Source of the DNA: Minisyncoccota bacterium | GTDB taxonomy: Archaea; Nanobdellota; Nanobdellia; Pacearchaeales; GW2011-AR1 | Reading direction: 5' to 3' | Assembly: GCA_035453125.1 (NCBI GenBank) | Contig: DAOTCN010000001.1 | Coordinates: 85,061 to 149,060, forward strand | Length of the DNA: 64,000 nt | Made by a program: the position numbers and the translations under genes | The notes under the pieces: model-generated | Databases searched by the model: none | The model's input: only the letters and a program-made list of their open reading frames with translations | What the model was told of the DNA's origin: nothing | Shown: piece after piece, positions 29,672 through 41,258 of the stretch | Layout: each line of letters begins with the position of its first letter | How positions within the stretch are numbered: position 1 is the first letter of the stretch

Positions 29672-30112
29672 TTAACTTGCTATAACATCCTGTAACTCTT
29701 TATAAAACTGCTCTTTGTCTTTATCATATTTTTCCCTTAATTTTCTTAGATATTTCCAAAAAGAAATATGATGATGCCAATCAATATATTCCCCTTCTTT
29801 TAAATCACTTGATTTATAAAATGTAAGTTTATTAGAATCCTCTAATTTCTTTAAATGTGCAATCTCATGTAATATAATTTCCCATATTTCTTCTTTGTAA
29901 TTTTCAAAATAAAAGACGCATAAAGGAATAAGAACTCTATTGAAGTTTATTTTATTCTTTTCTACATTGCAATTTCCACGAACCGATTTTTTACTAGAGA
30001 TATAAAGACTACAAAATTTTATTTTTATATTGGCATAACTTTCTTTTTCAGCTATTTCTTTAGCCCATTTTTTAATTATTTCTTCTGTCTTTTCTAGTTT
30101 ATCATCTCCCAT
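29672..30112 (-). CDS. putative zinc metallopeptidase (HExxH; SprT/WLM-like)
   Basis: 146 aa; ILHEIAHL motif. Confidence 0.45.
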   Translation of the reverse strand: MGDDKLEKTEEIIKKWAKEIAEKESYANIKIKFCSLYISSKKSVRGNCNVEKNKINFNRVLIPLCVFYFENYKEEIWEIILHEIAHLKKLEDSNKLTFYKSSDLKEGEYIDWHHHISFWKYLRKLREKYDKDKEQFYKELQDVIAS

Positions 30113-30154
30113 AATAAACTAATAAAACTAACATATTTAGAATTTACTCTCTTT

Positions 30155-30385
30155 TTACTTTTTTATCTTTACTCCATGACAAGTAATAAGCTCAATTTTC
30201 CCCTCTTTTTCAAAGTCGCTTAATAGCTTCCAACAATCAGATTTTTTAATGCCAAAATGAGTGCATAGCTTAACCCAAACATTAGGAAAAGAGATTATAT
30301 TATTTCTTTTTCTGCACTCTTTTAGTTTCTGAAATGCCAGTTCGTTTAAGTCGAATTTTTTCTTTGAGTTCTTCATCATCACCAA
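30155..30385 (-). CDS. small hypothetical protein (possible wHTH)
   Basis: 76 aa; overlaps the 3' end of the upstream zinc-ribbon ORF by 86 nt in another frame. Confidence 0.3.
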   Translation of the reverse strand: MVMMKNSKKKFDLNELAFQKLKECRKRNNIISFPNVWVKLCTHFGIKKSDCWKLLSDFEKEGKIELITCHGVKIKK

Positions 30386-30656
30386 TAGCCCGGTCTTCCC
30401 AATATTGTACTACTTCCTTATACCATTCATATAAACTTACATCTGCTCTTTTTACTAAATCCTCAAATTCTTCTAAAGACTTTTTATCATTTCTATTTAT
30501 TCCATGCATATAACCTAAAATATACCAAGATTTTGCACACATTTTCATAGTATCGTCAAACCCTGTGTGTATGGGTTTTTCTTTAATTTCAGAACCACAA
30601 TTATTACAAAACTTAGAACCCTCAGAAACTTCTTTTTCACATTTTAAACAATTCAT
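30300..30656 (-). CDS. zinc-ribbon domain protein
   Basis: 118 aa; N-terminal CLKC..(10)..CNNC double zinc ribbon. Confidence 0.4.
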   Translation of the reverse strand: MNCLKCEKEVSEGSKFCNNCGSEIKEKPIHTGFDDTMKMCAKSWYILGYMHGINRNDKKSLEEFEDLVKRADVSLYEWYKEVVQYWEDRAIGDDEELKEKIRLKRTGISETKRVQKKK

Positions 30657-30757
30657 TTAGAAATGCTGGATTCAAGTTTGTTAAATACTTATATAATAAA
30701 AAATCCAATAAAAAAGATTAACAATCGTATTAAGGTTAATTGTCTTAATATCTATTT

Positions 30758-30952
30758 TTACTCTTCTATCAATGGAAACTTCTCAATTACCATGTACTTC
30801 TTATTCCCAACCTTTACTGCACTTACCTGTACTTTGCTCCCACTTTTCAATCCAATGGCTTTTCCTTCTCTAGTTACTAAAACTCCGATCCCGTTTCCAT
30901 AGGTATTAAGCTGTTTTACAGATCTTTCTATTATCTCCTTGTTAGTTACCAT
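30758..30952 (-). CDS. AbrB/MazE-like swapped-hairpin DNA-binding protein (orphan antitoxin-like)
   Basis: 64 aa; GNGIGVLVTREGKAIGLKSGSKVQVSAV pattern. Confidence 0.4.
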   Translation of the reverse strand: MVTNKEIIERSVKQLNTYGNGIGVLVTREGKAIGLKSGSKVQVSAVKVGNKKYMVIEKFPLIEE

Positions 30953-31072: not shown

Positions 31073-31405
31073 TTGTACATATTAGACTCAAAACGGCTCC
31101 CTGAAAAACTTCATTTTAAAATTTCAGCACTGGGTCCAGAGTCTATAGATTCAACTGAAATTTGTAATAATATGTTCTCAAATGAGTTTAATTGTAAATC
31201 ATATAATGGATTATCTAGTAGGAAGAATTACATTTGCCAAATTAATTCTGAAAGTGAAAATTATGGGGATGCTCAATGTGGCAGTAATAATGGTAATCAG
31301 AAACTAAAATGGGTTGATTGTGATTGCGAAACAATTTATGACTTAGTGTTTTATAGTGCTCAAAATCAAAATACATATGATTGGACACCAACAAAGAAGG
31401 CATAA
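31073..31405 (+). CDS. small Cys-rich hypothetical protein (possibly the frameshifted remainder of a signal-peptide ORF at about 31012)
   Basis: 110 aa; an upstream out-of-frame mini-ORF MKKSLKVVIGIIMILFIISFNFV looks like its signal peptide. Confidence 0.25.
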   Translation: MYILDSKRLPEKLHFKISALGPESIDSTEICNNMFSNEFNCKSYNGLSSRKNYICQINSESENYGDAQCGSNNGNQKLKWVDCDCETIYDLVFYSAQNQNTYDWTPTKKA

Positions 31406-31439
31406 TCTTTATAAAAAAGATGTTAACAAACTAACAAAA

Positions 31440-32519
31440 ATGAAACAAATAAAAAAGAGGTTACTTATGGCATATTTATTCATTGGACTATTCTTAATAA
31501 TTTTTATGATTGAAAATGCAAGTGCTTTTTTTAGTAGAGATAAAGAAATCGGATTTATTAACACTAACGATAATTTTTACTCTTTTTCTTCAGACCTGAG
31601 TTCATTTAGTATAGAAGTTAATAATAGTCTTAATACTGAAGGAGCTAGTATTTATTTGGACACCAGCACTACCACTGATGGAGGATATTATGGTTCTCTT
31701 TACTATTTCAATAATAATGAAAAGTACGATTGTGAATTCACAGGATATTATAATGAAGGCATATCTGCAATGTTTGGAAACAAAAAACTTAGGTTTAATG
31801 GATTTATTACATGTAAAGAGAAAAATAATGGCATAATTTTACTAGGTCAAATTTCATCTAATCTTAAACTAGACTCTAATTGTAGAAGAAATTCAAATAT
31901 AAATTATTGTAAAGTAATAAGCGACGATCTCCCAGATTTTAGTTCAATAAACCTATTTTTATTTGAGGTTAATAATTCTCTACAAGACTTTCAACAAAAT
32001 ATTAAACTTAAAAATATTGAAACAACTCAATCTAGTCAAACCGAACAAATTACTAATCTAACTTTATGGAGAAATAATGTTAGTTTTGTTTTAGCAACAA
32101 ATTCTTCTCCAATAGGTAATGGGAGTTATTCTTATAATATCACAATTTATAATTTGACAAATATAAATCAAAGAATTTCATCCTTAGAAGCAAATCAAAC
32201 AAATATCACTGCAAGAGTATCGCTTCTTGAGTCATGGAAAGAATTCATTAATCGTGCTTTAGTTTCTTTAGATGAAATTGGTTTTGGTTTGAATAAATTA
32301 ACTGAAAGAGTTGTTGTATTAGAAAATAAATCAATAGTAATCCAAAATGGTTCTTTACCAAATTATTTCAAATATCTAAGTACTAGTGATAGAAAGACAA
32401 TGATTTGTGGTTATGCACAAGATAATCATCTAACACAAATAAATGACTTGGGATTAAATTGCAATATTACTTATAGACAAACCTCAACAAGAGAATATGC
32501 TACTTGTAAATGTAAATAA
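31440..32519 (+). CDS. secreted N-glycosylated surface protein
   Basis: Probable start MKQIKKRLLMAYLFIGLFLIIF (signal/TM) within the 31356-32519 ORF; many N-x-S/T sequons; C-terminal Cys pairs. Confidence 0.4.
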   Translation: MKQIKKRLLMAYLFIGLFLIIFMIENASAFFSRDKEIGFINTNDNFYSFSSDLSSFSIEVNNSLNTEGASIYLDTSTTTDGGYYGSLYYFNNNEKYDCEFTGYYNEGISAMFGNKKLRFNGFITCKEKNNGIILLGQISSNLKLDSNCRRNSNINYCKVISDDLPDFSSINLFLFEVNNSLQDFQQNIKLKNIETTQSSQTEQITNLTLWRNNVSFVLATNSSPIGNGSYSYNITIYNLTNINQRISSLEANQTNITARVSLLESWKEFINRALVSLDEIGFGLNKLTERVVVLENKSIVIQNGSLPNYFKYLSTSDRKTMICGYAQDNHLTQINDLGLNCNITYRQTSTREYATCKCK

Positions 32520-32573: not shown

Positions 32574-33977
32574 ATGGAAGAAACGCTTTATGATAAACTT
32601 TGTGATATTAATAATTTATTTCTCGCTTTTGATAAAGCCAGAAAAGGAAAAACTAAAAGAAGATATGTAAAAAGATTTCAAAAGAATCTTAAAGAGAACT
32701 TAGAGAAGCTAAATAAAGAACTTGTAAATCAGACTTATGAACCTTGCCCGTTAAAGAATTTTATTTTAGGAGACCCAAAAACAAGAAAAATAAGCAAGTC
32801 TGCTTATAGAGATAGAGTTGTTAATCATGCCTTATGCAGTATAATTGTACCAATACTTGAAAAGAGTTTTATTTATGATTCTCATGCAAATCAAATAGGC
32901 AAAGGAACTTTAAAGGCAATAGAACGATTTGACAAGTTCAAAAGAAAAGTATCAAGAAATAATACTAGAGAATGTTATGTACTGAAAGCTGACATCAAAC
33001 ACTATTTTGAAGAAATAGACCATGATATATTAATAGGAATAATAAGAAGAAAAATTAAGGATGAAAAAGTTATTTGGCTTATAAAAAAGATACTTGCTGT
33101 AAGCCACAAAGAAAAAGGTATGCCATTAGGAAATTTAACATCGCAATTTTTCGCTAATCTGTATCTTAATGAATTAGACCAATTTGTAAAACATAAGTTA
33201 AGAGTCAAATATTATATTCGTTATGTTGATGACTTTGTAATTATGCATAATTCTAAACAACAGCTTGAAGAATGGAAAATTGAGATTAATAATTTTTTGA
33301 AAGAAAGACTAAAAATTGAATTGCATCCAAGTAAATCCCATATTTTAAGATTAAGCAGTGGAATAAACTTTTTAGGATTTAGAATATTCTTTTATCATAA
33401 ACTTATAAGATCAAGCAATTTGAAGAATCTTGAGAGAAGATTAAATAAGCTTAGAATATTGTTTGATGCTGAGTTGTTAAGCAGAGAAAAAGTTCTCGAA
33501 TCTTTAGAGGGCTGGTTAGCTTATTGTTCTCATGCAAATACCTATAAGTATAGAAAGTATTTAATCAGAATATTTAACAAATGTTTTTCTTATGGAAATA
33601 AATTATTTGTTCATAACAAAAAGAATTATATTAATTACATTAAGAAAGTTAGTGAAAGTGAATTACAATTTGCGGTTCAAAGAACATTATTCAATTATAA
33701 AAAAGGATTATCTATAAAAGAAATTGCAATTAAGCAGAGAATAAAAGAATCAACTGTCTGGGGTCATTTAGCTAATTTAATTGAACATAAGCAATTATCT
33801 ATATGGCAAGTTATTGATAATGAAAAAGCACGTAAGATTTTCAATAAAATTTATAGTCCAAAAGAGAGATTAAGGGATATTAAAAAGAGAATAAAAGATA
33901 ATTCAATAACTTATGATGAAATAGCTTGTGTAATGGCAAGTATTAAGTCTAAAAGAAAGTATTTACACATATTGTAA
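32574..33977 (+). CDS. diversity-generating retroelement reverse transcriptase with C-terminal helical (HTH/HRDC-like) extension
   Basis: 467 aa; RT motifs 1-2 (PKTRKISKSAYRDRVVNHAL), DGR-type motif 4 PLGNLTSQFFANLYL, motif 5 YIRYVDDFVIM; about 130-aa C-terminal extension containing GLSIKEIAIKQRIKESTVWGHL. Confidence 0.8.
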   Translation: MEETLYDKLCDINNLFLAFDKARKGKTKRRYVKRFQKNLKENLEKLNKELVNQTYEPCPLKNFILGDPKTRKISKSAYRDRVVNHALCSIIVPILEKSFIYDSHANQIGKGTLKAIERFDKFKRKVSRNNTRECYVLKADIKHYFEEIDHDILIGIIRRKIKDEKVIWLIKKILAVSHKEKGMPLGNLTSQFFANLYLNELDQFVKHKLRVKYYIRYVDDFVIMHNSKQQLEEWKIEINNFLKERLKIELHPSKSHILRLSSGINFLGFRIFFYHKLIRSSNLKNLERRLNKLRILFDAELLSREKVLESLEGWLAYCSHANTYKYRKYLIRIFNKCFSYGNKLFVHNKKNYINYIKKVSESELQFAVQRTLFNYKKGLSIKEIAIKQRIKESTVWGHLANLIEHKQLSIWQVIDNEKARKIFNKIYSPKERLRDIKKRIKDNSITYDEIACVMASIKSKRKYLHIL

Positions 33978-34032
33978 TTACTAAGTAGTAACTAACCGAA
34001 AGGTTTATAAATAGCTTATTTATTGATTTAGT

Positions 34033-34845
34033 ATGGCATTAAAATTAAATCCAGAAAGAGAAGTATATAGAGAATTTTATGGTCAGAATGTGGCTCAAAT
34101 GCCTCTATTAGTAGCTGACAGAAGAGTTCCTATGAATGTTGCTCAATTATTGCAAAGAAGATTAGATGTTAGAAATTCTGATGCTGATGTTAGAACTGCT
34201 TATCATGATAATTATTTTGACACTGGTGATGCTATTGCATATCATCCAGATGGCAGAGTTAAAGTTGTTCTTGATTCTCAAACATTAAGAGAAATTAATC
34301 CTAAAAGTCAGTTAACTAATGGAGCATTAGTCTTAACAGAAGATGCTTATAGAGCTTTAGATGGTGTTGAGTTTAAGAAAGGAAAACTTGAGAAAGTTAA
34401 TGAGGGTCTTTCAATAAAAGAAGTTAAAGCTCATCCAGTTTGGAAAGTTTTAACAAGAGAAGATAAGGCATTACTTGACGATTATGCTGATTGGGCTTTT
34501 ACAGAATATAGAGATAGATTTGCTCAAGGTTCTGATGTTGATGACATAAGAATAATGGGAATTTATCCAGATTCAGCTGGAGAAGCTCCAAAATTAAGGG
34601 CTTGGTGTGTCAACAGGCTCGAGGACGGGTCTAATGCTAATGGCAGGTACCTCCTTGGCGATGACAATGGTCGCTTCCTCGGTATAGCGCCGGAGGCGCT
34701 TAGTGCGCCGGGTAAGGGTGCTTTAAGTGTAAGATTATATACAGTTGCAGATGTTCAAAAAGCACAAAAACAATTAGAACAAATTGATTCAGTAGTAAGA
34801 CCAGAATCTATTAGTGATGTTAAGTCTTTAATATCAAGACTTTAA
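34033..34845 (+). CDS. DGR variable (target) protein
   Basis: 270 aa; VR encoded at about residues 189-219; AT-rich codons except the GC-rich VR; no signal peptide. Confidence 0.7.
   Translation: MALKLNPEREVYREFYGQNVAQMPLLVADRRVPMNVAQLLQRRLDVRNSDADVRTAYHDNYFDTGDAIAYHPDGRVKVVLDSQTLREINPKSQLTNGALVLTEDAYRALDGVEFKKGKLEKVNEGLSIKEVKAHPVWKVLTREDKALLDDYADWAFTEYRDRFAQGSDVDDIRIMGIYPDSAGEAPKLRAWCVNRLEDGSNANGRYLLGDDNGRFLGIAPEALSAPGKGALSVRLYTVADVQKAQKQLEQIDSVVRPESISDVKSLISRL
34598..34688 (+). repeat. DGR variable repeat (VR)
   Basis: 91 bp, 81/91 identical to TR at 35094-35184; all 10 mismatches lie at TR adenines. Confidence 0.8.
34687..34715 (+). promoter_or_regulatory. GC-rich inverted repeat at the 3' edge of VR (IMH-associated hairpin candidate)
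   Basis: GCGCC-GGA-GGCGC hairpin then a second GCGCCGG; absent downstream of TR, where homology stops. Confidence 0.4.
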
Positions 34846-35093
34846 TTATTTTATTTTTACAATTCTATACAAATATTTTTACTTGAAATTTCGCAAGAAA
34901 TGAAAGTTAAAGATTGTACAACAATCTTTTTATAATCGATTTAATATAGTTCTAAGTCCTGGCAACCGTGGAAACATGAGAAGCTGGGTTATACGCACTT
35001 CCACGACGGCAACATAGTTGTCATAAAATACAACCATAACACCTAATGTTGTGAAATGGTGGTGAGAAAGTTAAGTGGAAGAGCTATGCTCTG

Positions 35094-35184
35094 GGGCTTG
35101 GTATGTCAACAGGCTCGAGAACAGGTCTAATGCTAATGGCAGGAACAACCTTGACAATGACAATGGTCGCTTCCTCGGAATAAC
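35094..35184 (+). repeat. DGR template repeat (TR), non-coding
   Basis: 91 bp with 27 adenines, 10 substituted in VR; lies in an intergenic region where the overlapping 83-aa ORF is spurious. Confidence 0.8.
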
Positions 35185-35242
35185 TCAGTTGTTGTTTACA
35201 GGACACTTATTATTATATTTTATATCTATATTTATTAAACAA

Positions 35243-35419
35243 TTATTTCTTCCAATAAACAACCTTAGTTCCATCACTAAGAGCAATACCTTTAGACTTA
35301 TATCCCTTAAGATTTTTGTGAAGTAATTCATCTAATATCATAATTAAATCAACAGTTTTGTTAAACTCTTTTGCTGTTGATTTCTTTTTATCAGTTTTGA
35401 CTGTTAGAATTATTTTCAT
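35243..35419 (-). CDS. small hypothetical protein (58 aa)
   Basis: Minus-strand ORF MKIILTVKTDKK... immediately downstream of the 87-aa gene; not in the supplied ORF track. Confidence 0.25.
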   Translation of the reverse strand: MKIILTVKTDKKKSTAKEFNKTVDLIMILDELLHKNLKGYKSKGIALSDGTKVVYWKK

Positions 35420-35983: not shown

Positions 35984-37555
35984 TTGCAAAAGGTTATTAA
36001 TAACCAATATCTTAGGATAGATATGTCAATAAACAATAAAGGTGACTTAGGGTTTGAACAGAAGCTTTGGGTTGCTGCTGATAAGATGAGAAGCAATAGG
36101 GATGCTTCCGAATATAAACATGTAGTCTTAGGTTTAATATTTCTAAAATATATTTCAGATGCTTTCAAAGAAGTTTATGAAGAAATAGCAAAAGACCCCT
36201 AAGGTGATCCTGAAGATGTAGATGAATATAAAGCAAGAAATGTCTTTTGGGTTCCTAAAGAATCTAGATGGGATCGTTTACAAAAGAATGCTAAACAACC
36301 AGTAATCGGAAAATTTATTGATGATGCAATGGATGCTATTGAAAAGGATAATCCTTCATTAAAAGGAGTTCTTCCAAAAGACTATGCTCGTCCTGCTTTA
36401 GATAAACAGAGATTAGGTGAACTAATTGATCTCATAGGATCAATAGCTTTGGGAGACAATGAAAGTAGAAGTAAAGATATACTTGGAAGAGTGTATGAAT
36501 ATTTTTTAGGACAATTTGCAGATGCTGAAGGAAAAAAAGGTGGACAGTTTTATACTCCTAGATGTATTGTTAAACTTCTTGTTCAAATGATTGAACCTTA
36601 TAAAGGAAGAGTTTTTGATCCGTGTTGCGGATCAGGTGGAATGTTTGTTCAAAGTGAAAAATTTGTTCAAAGTCACTCTGGAAGGTTAAATGATATTTCT
36701 ATTTTTGGACAAGAAAGTAATCCAACTACTTGGAAATTATGCAAGATGAATTTAGCAATTAGGGGTATTGATTCTTCTTTTATAAAATGGAATAATGAAG
36801 GAAGTTTTTTGAATGATGAACATAGAGATCTTAAAGCAGATTTTATTATTGCTAATCCTCCATTTAATGATTCAGACTGGAAAGGTGAACAATTAAAAGA
36901 AGACATAAGATGGAAATATAGAGTGCCTCCAACTGGAAATGCTAACTTCGCATGGGTTCAACATTTTATACACCATTTAGCACCACATGGAATGGCAGGT
37001 TTTGTTCTAGCTAACGGTTCTTTATCTTCAAATAATGGTGGAGAGGGAGAAATAAGAAAAAACATTATTGAAGCTGATTTAGTTGATTGTATTATTGCGA
37101 TGCCTTCACAGTTGTTTTATAATACTCAAATTCCTGCTTGTTTATGGTTTATTTCAAAAGACAAGAAAAATCATAAATTTAGAAATAGGGAAGGAGAAGT
37201 TTTGTTTATTGATGCAAGAAAATTAGGAAGTATGATTGATAGAAGACATAGAGATCTTACTGATGAAGATGTAAAAAAGATTTCTTCAATTTATCATGCT
37301 TGGAGAGGAGAAGGTGGAAAGTATGAAGATGTTATTGGATTATGCAAGTCTGTTAAGTTAGATGAAATAAGAAAGCATGGACATGTTCTTACTGCTGGAA
37401 GATATGTTGGATCTGAAGAAGTGGAAGAAGATCCAGAAGTCTTTAATGAAAAAATGAAAAGGCTTACAATAGAACTCGCAGAGCAATTCAAAGAGTCTGA
37501 TAAATTAGAAAAAGAGATCAAAGAAAACTTAGCTGGAATTGGCTGGAGGATATAG
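35984..37555 (+). pseudogene. hsdM: type I restriction-modification N6-adenine methyltransferase HsdM interrupted by an in-frame TAA; orphan (no hsdS or hsdR)
   Basis: ORFs 35984-36202 (HsdM N-domain LWVAADKMRSNRDASEYKHVVLGLIFLKYISD) and 36329-37555 (DPCCGSGG motif I, NPPF motif IV) share a frame separated by one TAA at 36200-36202; the intervening sequence translates in-frame. Confidence 0.7.
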
Positions 37556-39650: not shown

Positions 39651-41258
39651 ATGGCTGATAATAAACAAGTATATGTTTTACCTGAAAATGTTCAAAGAAT
39701 GTTAGGTCAGGATGCTCAAAGAAATAATATTCTAGCTGCGAGAATAGTTGCAGATACTGTTAAAACAACTCTTGGACCGAAAGGTATGGATAAGATGCTT
39801 GTCGATTCTACAGGTAATGTTATTGTTACAAATGATGGAGTTACTATTCTTGAGGAAATGGATGTTGAACATCCTGCTGCAAAAATGATGGTTGAAATTG
39901 CAAAGACTCAGGAAAAAGAAGTTGGTGATGGAACTACTACTGCAGTTATGCTTGCCGGAAAATTGTTGGAAAATGCTGAAAAACTTTTAGATAAAAAAAT
40001 ACATCCAACAATAATAACAAAAGGTTATCAAATTGCCTCTGAAAAATCAATTCAAATACTTAATGATATTGCATCAAGAGTTACAACAGAAGATGATATT
40101 GCACTTAAACAATTAGCAATAACCTCTATGACTGGAAAAAGTATTGAAGGTGTAAAAGAAAAATTTTCAGATATTGTTGTTAATGCAGTTAAACTAGTAG
40201 AAGATTACGGGAAAATTGATTTAAATAATATTAAAATTGAAAAAATTCAGGGAGATAGTATTAAAGATAGTGAGCTGGTTTCTGGAATTGTTTTAGATAT
40301 AGAAAAAATTAACATTGATATGCCGAAGATTGTTGAAAATGCACGTATCTCTTTAGTTGATTTTCCAATTGAATTAAAAAATCCAGAAATTGAAACTAAA
40401 TTAAGCATTTCAAGTCCTGAAGAATTACAGAGTTTTGTTGAATCTGAAGAGATTATGTTAAGAGAGATAGTTAATAAAATTAAAAAGACTGGAGCAAATG
40501 TTATTTTTTGTCAAAAAGGTATTGATGATGTTGCACAATATTTTTTGACAAAGGCAAATATATATGCTTGTAGAAGAGTTTCAAAGAGTGATATGGAAAA
40601 ACTGTCTAAGGCAACTGGTGCAAAAATAGTTAGTAATTTAAATGAATTGAGCAGTGATGATTTAGGAAGTGCAAAAAGCGTTGAAGAAGTAAATGAAGGA
40701 AGTAATTTAATGACTTATGTTCGAGGATGTTTAAATCCAAAAGCAGTTACTATTTTGATTCGCGGTGGTTCTGAACATGTTCTTGATGAAACTGAAAGAG
40801 CTGTAAAAGATGGATTGGGAGATGTTAGTGCTGTACTTAGAGATGGGATGATTGTTGCTGGTGGTGGTGCTATTGAGATTGAACTTGCAAAGAAGTTAAG
40901 GGAGTTTTCTCAATCTCTTTCTGGAAGAGAACAATTAGCTGTTGAAGAGTTTGCTTCTTCCCTTGAATTTATACCAATAACTCTTTCTGAAAATGCAGGA
41001 ATGGATCCAATTGATGTTATTACTGAAATGAAATCTTGTCATGATAATGGCAAAAAAAATTTTGGTTTAAATCTTTTTAATGGAAAAATAGAGGACACTT
41101 TTTTAGCAGGAATAATTGAACCTTTGAAAGTTAAAACTCAAGCAATAAACTCAGCATCTGAAGTAGCTATTATGATCTTAAGAATTGATGATGTTATTGC
41201 TGCAAATAGTAAAAAACAATCTAATTCTGGAAGAAATTATTTGCAGGATTATGATTAG
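39651..41258 (+). CDS. ths: thermosome subunit (group II chaperonin)
   Basis: 535 aa; [21 protein letters not shown]-binding motifs, helical protrusion region. Confidence 0.95.

Follow-up and report, generated by a model that had tools for sequence, protein, structure and literature searches.

Results

Organisation of the cassette

We analysed a putative diversity-generating retroelement (DGR) and its target protein in a 64,000-nucleotide stretch of DNA, hereafter the window (contig DAOTCN010000001.1 of GenBank assembly GCA_035453125.1, positions 85,061–149,060 of the forward strand; the coordinates below are those of the window). Genes for the thermosome (39651–41258) and MCM (628–2655) identify the window as archaeal chromosome. 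All parts of the cassette lie on the + strand. The target, or variable protein, gene is an open reading frame (ORF) at 34033–34845 that encodes 270 residues with the N-terminus MALKLNPEREVY. Directly upstream is a gene for a 467-residue reverse transcriptase (RT; 32574–33977). The variable region (VR) lies inside the target gene (34598–34686), and the non-coding template repeat (TR) lies downstream of it (35094–35182).

The RT matches Pfam RVT_1 (E 4.7e-25) and carries a C-terminal HTH_40 fusion at residues 368–454 (E 2.6e-16); it also matches PHROG 1423, ‘Reverse transcriptase’, with an E-value of 2.9e-120. The motif [ILV]GxxxSQ together with YxDD is diagnostic of DGR-type RTs, and the protein reads LGNLTSQ at residues 185–191 and YVDD at 217–220. 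The same RVT_1 and HTH_40 architecture is recorded for the RT of a related locus, L001.

When ORFs from the window region and 56 related loci were clustered, the target and the RT were the only genes that recurred as neighbours. RT orthologues, at 56–78% identity, adjoin the target in 24 of the 56 loci, and their placement varies: in the window the RT gene precedes the target on the same strand, and in other loci it follows the target, in either orientation. The order RT-target-TR on one strand in the window is replaced in most relatives by target-TR followed by an inverted RT, and in six loci (L022, L023, L027, L036, L040 and L043) by target-TR-RT on one strand.

The target belongs to a large family. 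Homologues number 361 at E ≤ 1e-3 in a collection clustered at 90% identity, and in a 50%-identity library the family takes up at least 1150 clusters at E ≤ 1e-3, 766 of them at 1e-10. A genome scan retrieved 55 loci, nearly all from metagenome-assembled genomes labelled Nanoarchaeota, Pacearchaeota or Woesearchaeota, the remainder being a few labelled ‘archaeon’ and one labelled ‘bacterium’. The search for homologues in DPANN genomes that had been proposed thus finds the family spread across them. The target itself matches no family in Pfam (E ≤ 1), NCBIfam or PHROGs.

Variable region and template repeat

VR encodes residues 189–218 of the target and is an 89-nt direct repeat of TR, which contains 26 adenines. 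The two copies differ at nine positions in the 89-nt alignment, every one of them a TR adenine; random placement would put all nine there with a probability of (26/89)^9, or about 1.5e-5. The repeat occurs just twice in the window, and shuffled sequence gave no matches. Within the variable stretch (residues 192–212), 15 TR codons contain adenine and eight of these are AAC or AAT (AAY), which bears out the original prediction that the variable codons map to AAC/AAT-rich positions. By enumeration, adenine substitution in the 15 codons could yield about 1.8e13 protein variants. An 83-residue mechanical ORF at 35075–35326 (+) spans TR; it is merely TR in the VR frame (AWYVNRLENRSNANGRNNLDNDNGRFLGI) and there is no gene to annotate.

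The same pattern extends to the relatives. Among 55 close homologues, the mean column entropy is 2.41 bits at codons with a TR adenine, compared with 0.46 bits at the other VR codons and 0.86 bits for the core of the target. The variable positions take up to 15 residue types family-wide, and the interleaved adenine-free codons (W191, V193, L196, S200, A202, G204, L208, G213 and R214) are invariant. In the repeat pairs of the related loci, where the most adenine-rich copy of each pair was counted as TR, TR adenines account for 402 mismatches and other positions for 63. The 63 come mostly from L038, L041, L048, L017 and L043, which are VR-VR pairs lacking a real TR, or decayed. Judged by these repeats, the family as a whole is a DGR target.

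Two further arrangements were seen among the related loci. In L019, L021, L022, L023, L040 and L043, two tandem paralogous targets each have a VR of their own and share one TR. In L038, L041 and L048 two VR-bearing genes are present, but the DNA retrieved includes neither a TR nor an RT; such genes could be in decay, or could be served in trans.

Start codon and export signals

An in-frame TGA at 34024–34026 stands three codons before the ATG of the target gene. An N-terminal extension is therefore impossible, and the ATG is the first possible start; an upstream start with a signal peptide, which had been named as one of the findings that would overturn the prediction, does not exist. The first residues, M-A-L-K-L-N, are kept across the 55 close homologues. 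Archaeal promoters obey a spacing rule between TATA box and transcript start, and a TATA-like box read from the sequence (TTTATAAATA, 34004–34013, +) is centred about 25 nt 5′ of the ATG. Its position suggests that the target mRNA is leaderless.

Export signals were assessed by hydropathy, for the target and for the family alike. The Kyte-Doolittle mean over 19-residue windows peaks at 0.88 in the target, and residues 1–14 hold the charges K4, E8, R9, E10, R13 and E14; the protein therefore has neither the h-region of a signal peptide nor a transmembrane helix. Among 268 family proteins (120 close homologues and 148 representatives), none reaches a mean of 1.6 in any 19-residue window. By this measure, the absence of an export signal is family-wide and no accident of gene calling. 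The original prediction described the target gene correctly in every particular: the ORF, the missing hydrophobic leader, and an internal VR followed by about 50 residues, of which we count 52.

Predicted fold

A model of the target was built with AlphaFold2 (AF2) on 132 diverse homologues and reached a predicted local distance difference test (pLDDT) score of 94.1 and a predicted template modelling score (pTM) of 0.82. Searched against the PDB with Foldseek, it gave a single significant match, chain A of 5IOO (5ioo_A), which is AvpA (E 6.9e-10, probability 1.00). The match covers 233 aligned columns at 18% identity, with a template modelling (TM) score of 0.71 normalised on AvpA, and the next PDB entry follows at E 1.4. 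The 5IOO entry is titled ‘Accommodation of massive sequence variation in Nanoarchaeota by the C-type lectin fold’. An earlier AF2 run on the 55 close homologues was poor (pLDDT 62), and AvpA was nonetheless ranked first by Foldseek. In the sequence searches, replication factor A surfaced as a weak PDB match (E 0.24) and was judged to be chance.

Residues 1–218 (34033–34686, +) are thus predicted to form an AvpA-type C-type lectin (CLec) domain, from β1 at residues 12–17 to a closing strand at 213–218. These two strands sit where the paired terminal strands β1 and β5 of AvpA lie, a correspondence of position only. A further strand is predicted at 187–193, and the sequence RFLGI occupies 214–218. 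Structure prediction had been suggested as a check for a CLec or formylglycine-generating-enzyme (FGE)-like fold; it returns a CLec-type fold of the AvpA subclass rather than the FGE subclass.

The likeness to AvpA goes beyond the superposition of the predicted fold on the whole AvpA chain. AvpA has 256 residues (270 in the target), with the CLec fold at residues 8–209; its VR starts only at the end of strand β4′, and an invariant element, the IMH (initiation of mutagenic homing), codes for its closing strand, RFxGV (Handa et al. 2016, PMC5006420). In the target, likewise, VR lies at the end of the fold and the IMH-type element encodes the closing strand, RFLGI. In the crystal, the last 46 residues of AvpA, those after VR, are disordered; they are predicted to form two α-helices (PMC5006420), as are the 52 post-VR residues of the target. 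Both proteins have an AAY-rich VR, about 1e13 possible variants and DPANN-type hosts. An internal VR with trailing residues is found in other Nanoarchaeota targets as well, and relatives found solely by fold recognition are listed there at 17–23% identity (PMC5006420). The two proteins differ in the number of variable codons (15 in the target, 12 in AvpA) and in their conserved motifs, NYFDTGDAxxYHPDGxxKIVLDS and PxWxxLAR in the target family taking the place of GxxVVVYAH and HPxxxPFxG in AvpA.

Elements following the variable region

A GC-rich 14-nt element, GGTCGCTTCCTCGG (34669–34682, +), is identical in VR and TR and encodes the invariant closing strand G-R-F-L-G. The window holds this element exactly twice, where chance would give no copy, and it is kept in 61 family genes. 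By analogy, we liken it to the IMH of the Bordetella phage DGR. The homology between VR and TR ends four bases past this element.

At that 3′ boundary, and within the coding sequence (I-A-P-E-A), lies a potential hairpin, AGCGCC-GGA-GGCGCT (34686–34700, +), with a GC stem of 5–6 bp and a 3-nt loop; it is present after VR and absent after TR. In 56 family sequences picked by a protein anchor, the stem positions pair in 89% of cells, versus 18–50% when the partners are slid. Compensatory changes, from G:C to A:T and from C:G to T:A, affect three pairs in 7 cells, and the covariation score was reached by 0 of 500 shuffles. The codons it imposes are rare, GCG making up 1.8% of alanine codons and GAG 15% of glutamate codons in the ORFs of this window, whose GC content is 28%. 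The conserved pairing and the rare codons together indicate that the constraint acts on the nucleic acid. On these comparisons, it is a DNA hairpin that determines the first post-VR residues, I-A-P-E-A. When the post-VR region was folded as a single sequence, the result was not significant (z −0.89), and the comparative count is the sole support for the hairpin. A second possible hairpin, GGCGC-TTAGT-GCGCC at 34695–34709, occurs only in the subfamily that has the tail type of this target.

Between the target stop codon and TR, directly 5′ of TR, the full model of the RT-16 RNA (Rfam RF03019) matches at 34958–35092 (+), scoring 73.8 bits where the gathering threshold is 50. RT-16 ends 1–2 nt before TR in all 12 related archaeal loci tested (for example L001 4840–4976, L003 1959–2140 and L008 6402–6539, and 9 further loci). 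Rfam lists it as a small RNA of unknown role near RT genes. In this DPANN lineage of DGRs, the TR RNA probably begins with RT-16 as its structured 5′ portion. A TATA-like box read from the sequence (TTTTATAA, 34928–34935, +) stands about 26 nt 5′ of the first RT-16 base, and a similar one precedes the RT-16 copy in L001. With one box 5′ of the target ATG and the other 5′ of RT-16, the target and TR may be transcribed separately.

The protein continues past the fold with a linker, APEALSAPGKGALSVRLYT (residues 219–237; 34687–34743, +), which AF2 predicts with low confidence: pLDDT falls below 50 at residues 228–230 and 232–235, and averages over blocks of 10 residues are 71 and 60. It then ends with a predicted two-helix module (helices 238–252 and 261–269; 34744–34842, +), for which the block pLDDT values are 90, 94 and 86 and which is conserved in the 55 close homologues. 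Family-wide, tails vary. Among the 132 representatives, 74 have fewer than 25 post-VR residues, and 40 of these have fewer than 10. The 58 with tails of at least 25 residues fall into the similarity cluster of the target tail (32), another shared cluster (9), and singletons or pairs. The types found are no tail, the two-helix YTMADLQ...LRKKL, FxFNGxxYxPV, and several rarer ones (P0121–P0268, alignment A3). On this distribution, the post-VR tail is a module that family members can lack or exchange. We infer that the two helices could serve as an optional docking or oligomerisation module, an adaptor deciding to which partner the binder is attached.

Discussion

We regard it as highly probable that the target is the variable protein of a chromosomal DGR, devoid of Avd, in a DPANN archaeon of the Pacearchaeota/Nanoarchaeota type. 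Several observations weigh against this reading or parts of it. First, neighbouring ORFs have no Avd-like Pfam match and there is no third conserved gene over the 56 loci. Because the cassette has no Avd-like gene, some details of the mechanism may depart from the Bordetella paradigm; Avd accompanies most DGRs but not all, and examples lacking it are already known (PMC5758913). Second, the fold assignment has no counterpart in sequence: phmmer and the 55- and 132-sequence profiles, run against the PDB, returned no AvpA at E ≤ 10, and two of the three published AvpA motifs, GxxVVVYAH and HPxxxPFxG, occur in none of the 268 family proteins. Near their positions the target reads GRVKVVLDS and HPVWKVLTR, a correspondence by position in unaligned sequences. 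AvpA was, moreover, already public when AlphaFold2 was trained, so a bias towards its fold is possible. Third, the tail profile found only chance matches in the PDB (myosin-2 and designed proteins, E ≥ 0.06). Fourth, a scan of JGI metagenome contigs for VR variants of the source strain gave 0 matches; an exact-protein contig look-up returned no record, and the 90%-identity cluster of the target consists of a single member sequence, on 3 contigs.

Given a fold match together with the missing sequence link and motifs, we file the target, on the strength of the model, under the AvpA structural class as a separate sequence family. The hypervariability of the family at adenine codons is consistent with current diversification, in which this copy may take part.

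Drawing on the known mechanism of DGRs, the cassette might work as follows. A short RNA consisting of the RT-16 element and TR would be transcribed, and the adjacent RT would copy TR, misincorporating at adenines. The resulting cDNA would replace VR, and its 3′ end would be fixed by the VR-only hairpin together with the GC-rich 14-nt element that both repeats contain. Fifteen codons between the last two strands of the AvpA-type fold would thereby be rewritten, into up to about 1.8e13 variants, and the adenine-free codons would keep the scaffold constant. In AvpA, the stretch between the last two strands forms a solvent-exposed binding surface (PMC5006420), and by analogy the variable residues of the target may be exposed in the same way; their tolerance of up to 15 residue types, next to invariant adenine-free codons, lends this indirect support. 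The target would be made as a leaderless, soluble protein, with the fold followed by a flexible linker and then the two helices.

Comparison with other known DGRs sets off what is shared from what is not. TvpA of Treponema denticola is a lipoprotein, and Mtd of Bordetella phage BPP-1 a phage tail-fibre protein. Both share their plan with the target: a fold of the CLec type ends, on its C-terminal side, in a VR templated by adenines, after which come a GC-rich IMH and a hairpin. Unlike them, the target has no Pfam FGE-sulfatase or DUF1566 match, and Foldseek does not match it to Mtd or TvpA at E ≤ 10. In addition, VR is at the extreme C-terminus of Mtd and TvpA, whereas 52 residues follow it here.

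The cis-elements of the Bordetella phage DGR are similar in kind, with a GC-rich element common to VR and TR, a hairpin only after VR and a structured RNA adjoining TR (RT-16 here, RT-10 in BPP-1, both from the series of RT-associated RNA motifs RT-1 to RT-19; Weinberg et al. 2017, PMC5737381). The arrangement differs, however. The hairpin here has 5–6 bp and a 3-nt loop and lies inside coding sequence, the structured RNA is 5′ of TR rather than 3′ of it, between TR and RT, as in the phage, and instead of Avd there is an RT with a fused HTH_40.

The original prediction presented the missing leader and the internal VR as a departure from most characterised DGR targets. Its core, a DGR-diversified binder with a CLec-type fold and no recognisable export signal, is upheld; the idea that these features are unusual is not. 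A leaderless protein with an internal VR is typical of AvpA-like archaeal targets, and the tail is optional across the family. DGR targets without signal peptides are known in bacteria, too (PMC10907252). The main value of the flagged oddities is thus negative, in that they are the norm for a known archaeal class. The analysis adds an assignment to the AvpA class, by predicted fold, of a large family not represented in Pfam, NCBIfam or PHROGs. It also shows that export signals are missing throughout this family and that the tail is modular, that a hairpin lies within coding sequence, and that RT-16 keeps a constant place next to TR. DGR targets are abundant in DPANN archaea, and these findings sharpen the question of where the binders act.

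We rate as plausible, though somewhat less likely than not, a cytoplasmic role in which the target would be a diversified sensor or binder of viral, host-derived or regulatory molecules. The family-wide lack of export signals argues for this placement, and there is a precedent in the cytoplasmic DGR targets of multicellular bacteria, which are likewise predicted to have no signal peptide (Dore et al. 2024, PMC10907252). Those proteins, however, are CLec sensors associated with STAND NTPase or MoxR, large and multidomain, and bear NTPase or effector domains in conflict systems, whereas the present target is a single CLec domain with two helices and no conserved neighbours. Against this role stands the finding that no effector or signalling domain is fused in any member examined, Pfam giving no match in 10 atypically long family members. 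The original prediction referred to reports of intracellular or non-classically exported archaeal targets. The words signal, intracellular, cytoplasm and secret* do not occur in two papers on archaeal DGRs, PMC5006420 among them, and this part is unconfirmed.

It is also possible, if somewhat doubtful, that the protein is displayed on the surface by an unconventional route, for example through a secreted partner bound via the C-terminal helices, and mediates attachment between the DPANN cell and its host. Cell-cell attachment is an idea that reviews credit to Paul et al. 2017 (PMC6349945, PMC10907252), a role in symbiosis was proposed by Handa et al. (PMC5006420), and a modular tail is what one would expect of an adaptor. 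By hydropathy, however, none of the 268 members has a Sec, Tat or pilin-type segment or a C-terminal anchor, and the 56 loci reveal no conserved secreted or membrane partner next to the cassette.

Returning to the cytoplasmic role, a more specific proposal seems to us speculative and rather unlikely as it stands: a very large DPANN family of leaderless, soluble DGR binders with a lectin fold would act inside the cell with about 1e13 specificities, the C-terminal modules plugging the sensor into different partners. If true, the family would not be the surface adhesin usually assumed for DPANN DGR targets.

The roughly 50 post-VR codons could be a read-through by-product of the DNA elements of retrohoming, with no function in the protein. 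In keeping with this, I-A-P-E-A is fixed by the hairpin at the cost of rare GCG and GAG codons, and more than half of the family representatives manage without a long tail. Past the hairpin, however, the 55 homologues keep the length, YTMADLQ-type motifs and a terminal K-L; the tail entropy is 1.18 bits versus 0.86 for the core, and AF2 predicts two helices with confidence. We consider a mere by-product improbable.

That the cassette sits in a provirus or mobile element, and that the target is a viral receptor-binding protein like Mtd, is very improbable. Phage and virus DGR targets are also without signal peptides, the small ORFs at 29.6–31 kb have weak PHROG matches, and an ORF that by eye looks putatively integrase-like recurs in 7 related loci. 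On the other side, the target has no PHROG match and no structural match in BFVD, capsid or tail genes are not conserved beside it, and the flanks are housekeeping genes (thermosome, MCM and phosphoenolpyruvate synthase). A miscalled start hiding an upstream signal peptide, or a membrane-anchored target, has next to no chance of being right and was rejected, with nothing found in its favour, being refuted by the in-frame TGA before the ATG and contradicted by the conserved MALKLN, the first fold strand beginning at residue 12 and the TATA-like box 25 nt upstream.

Neighbouring genes

The NCBI protein identical to the target, HRZ85285.1, is labelled ‘Candidatus Paceibacterota bacterium’, a bacterial phylum, despite the archaeal markers in the window. 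Because of these markers, and because the homologous loci are nearly all from Pacearchaeota, Nanoarchaeota and Woesearchaeota, the public bacterial label looks wrong.

Just 5′ of the RT gene, at 31356–32519 (+), lies a gene for a 387-residue protein rich in asparagine, serine and threonine with an N-terminal hydrophobic helix at residues 36–54 (Kyte-Doolittle 2.2). It is probably a surface protein, and related loci do not share it as a neighbour of the cassette. Farther upstream, at 29672–30952 (−), small ORFs include a zinc-ribbon protein and a protein with a HEIAH metallopeptidase-like motif, both with weak PHROG matches to families of unknown function; this cluster may be the remnant of a mobile element.

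Near the cassette, the hsdM gene of a type I restriction-modification system is split into two ORFs at 35984–36202 and 36329–37555 (+). The first, of 72 residues, corresponds to model positions 5–47 and the second, of 408 residues, to 155–495, with about 100 model positions missing between them; the split may reflect a pseudogene or a frameshift.

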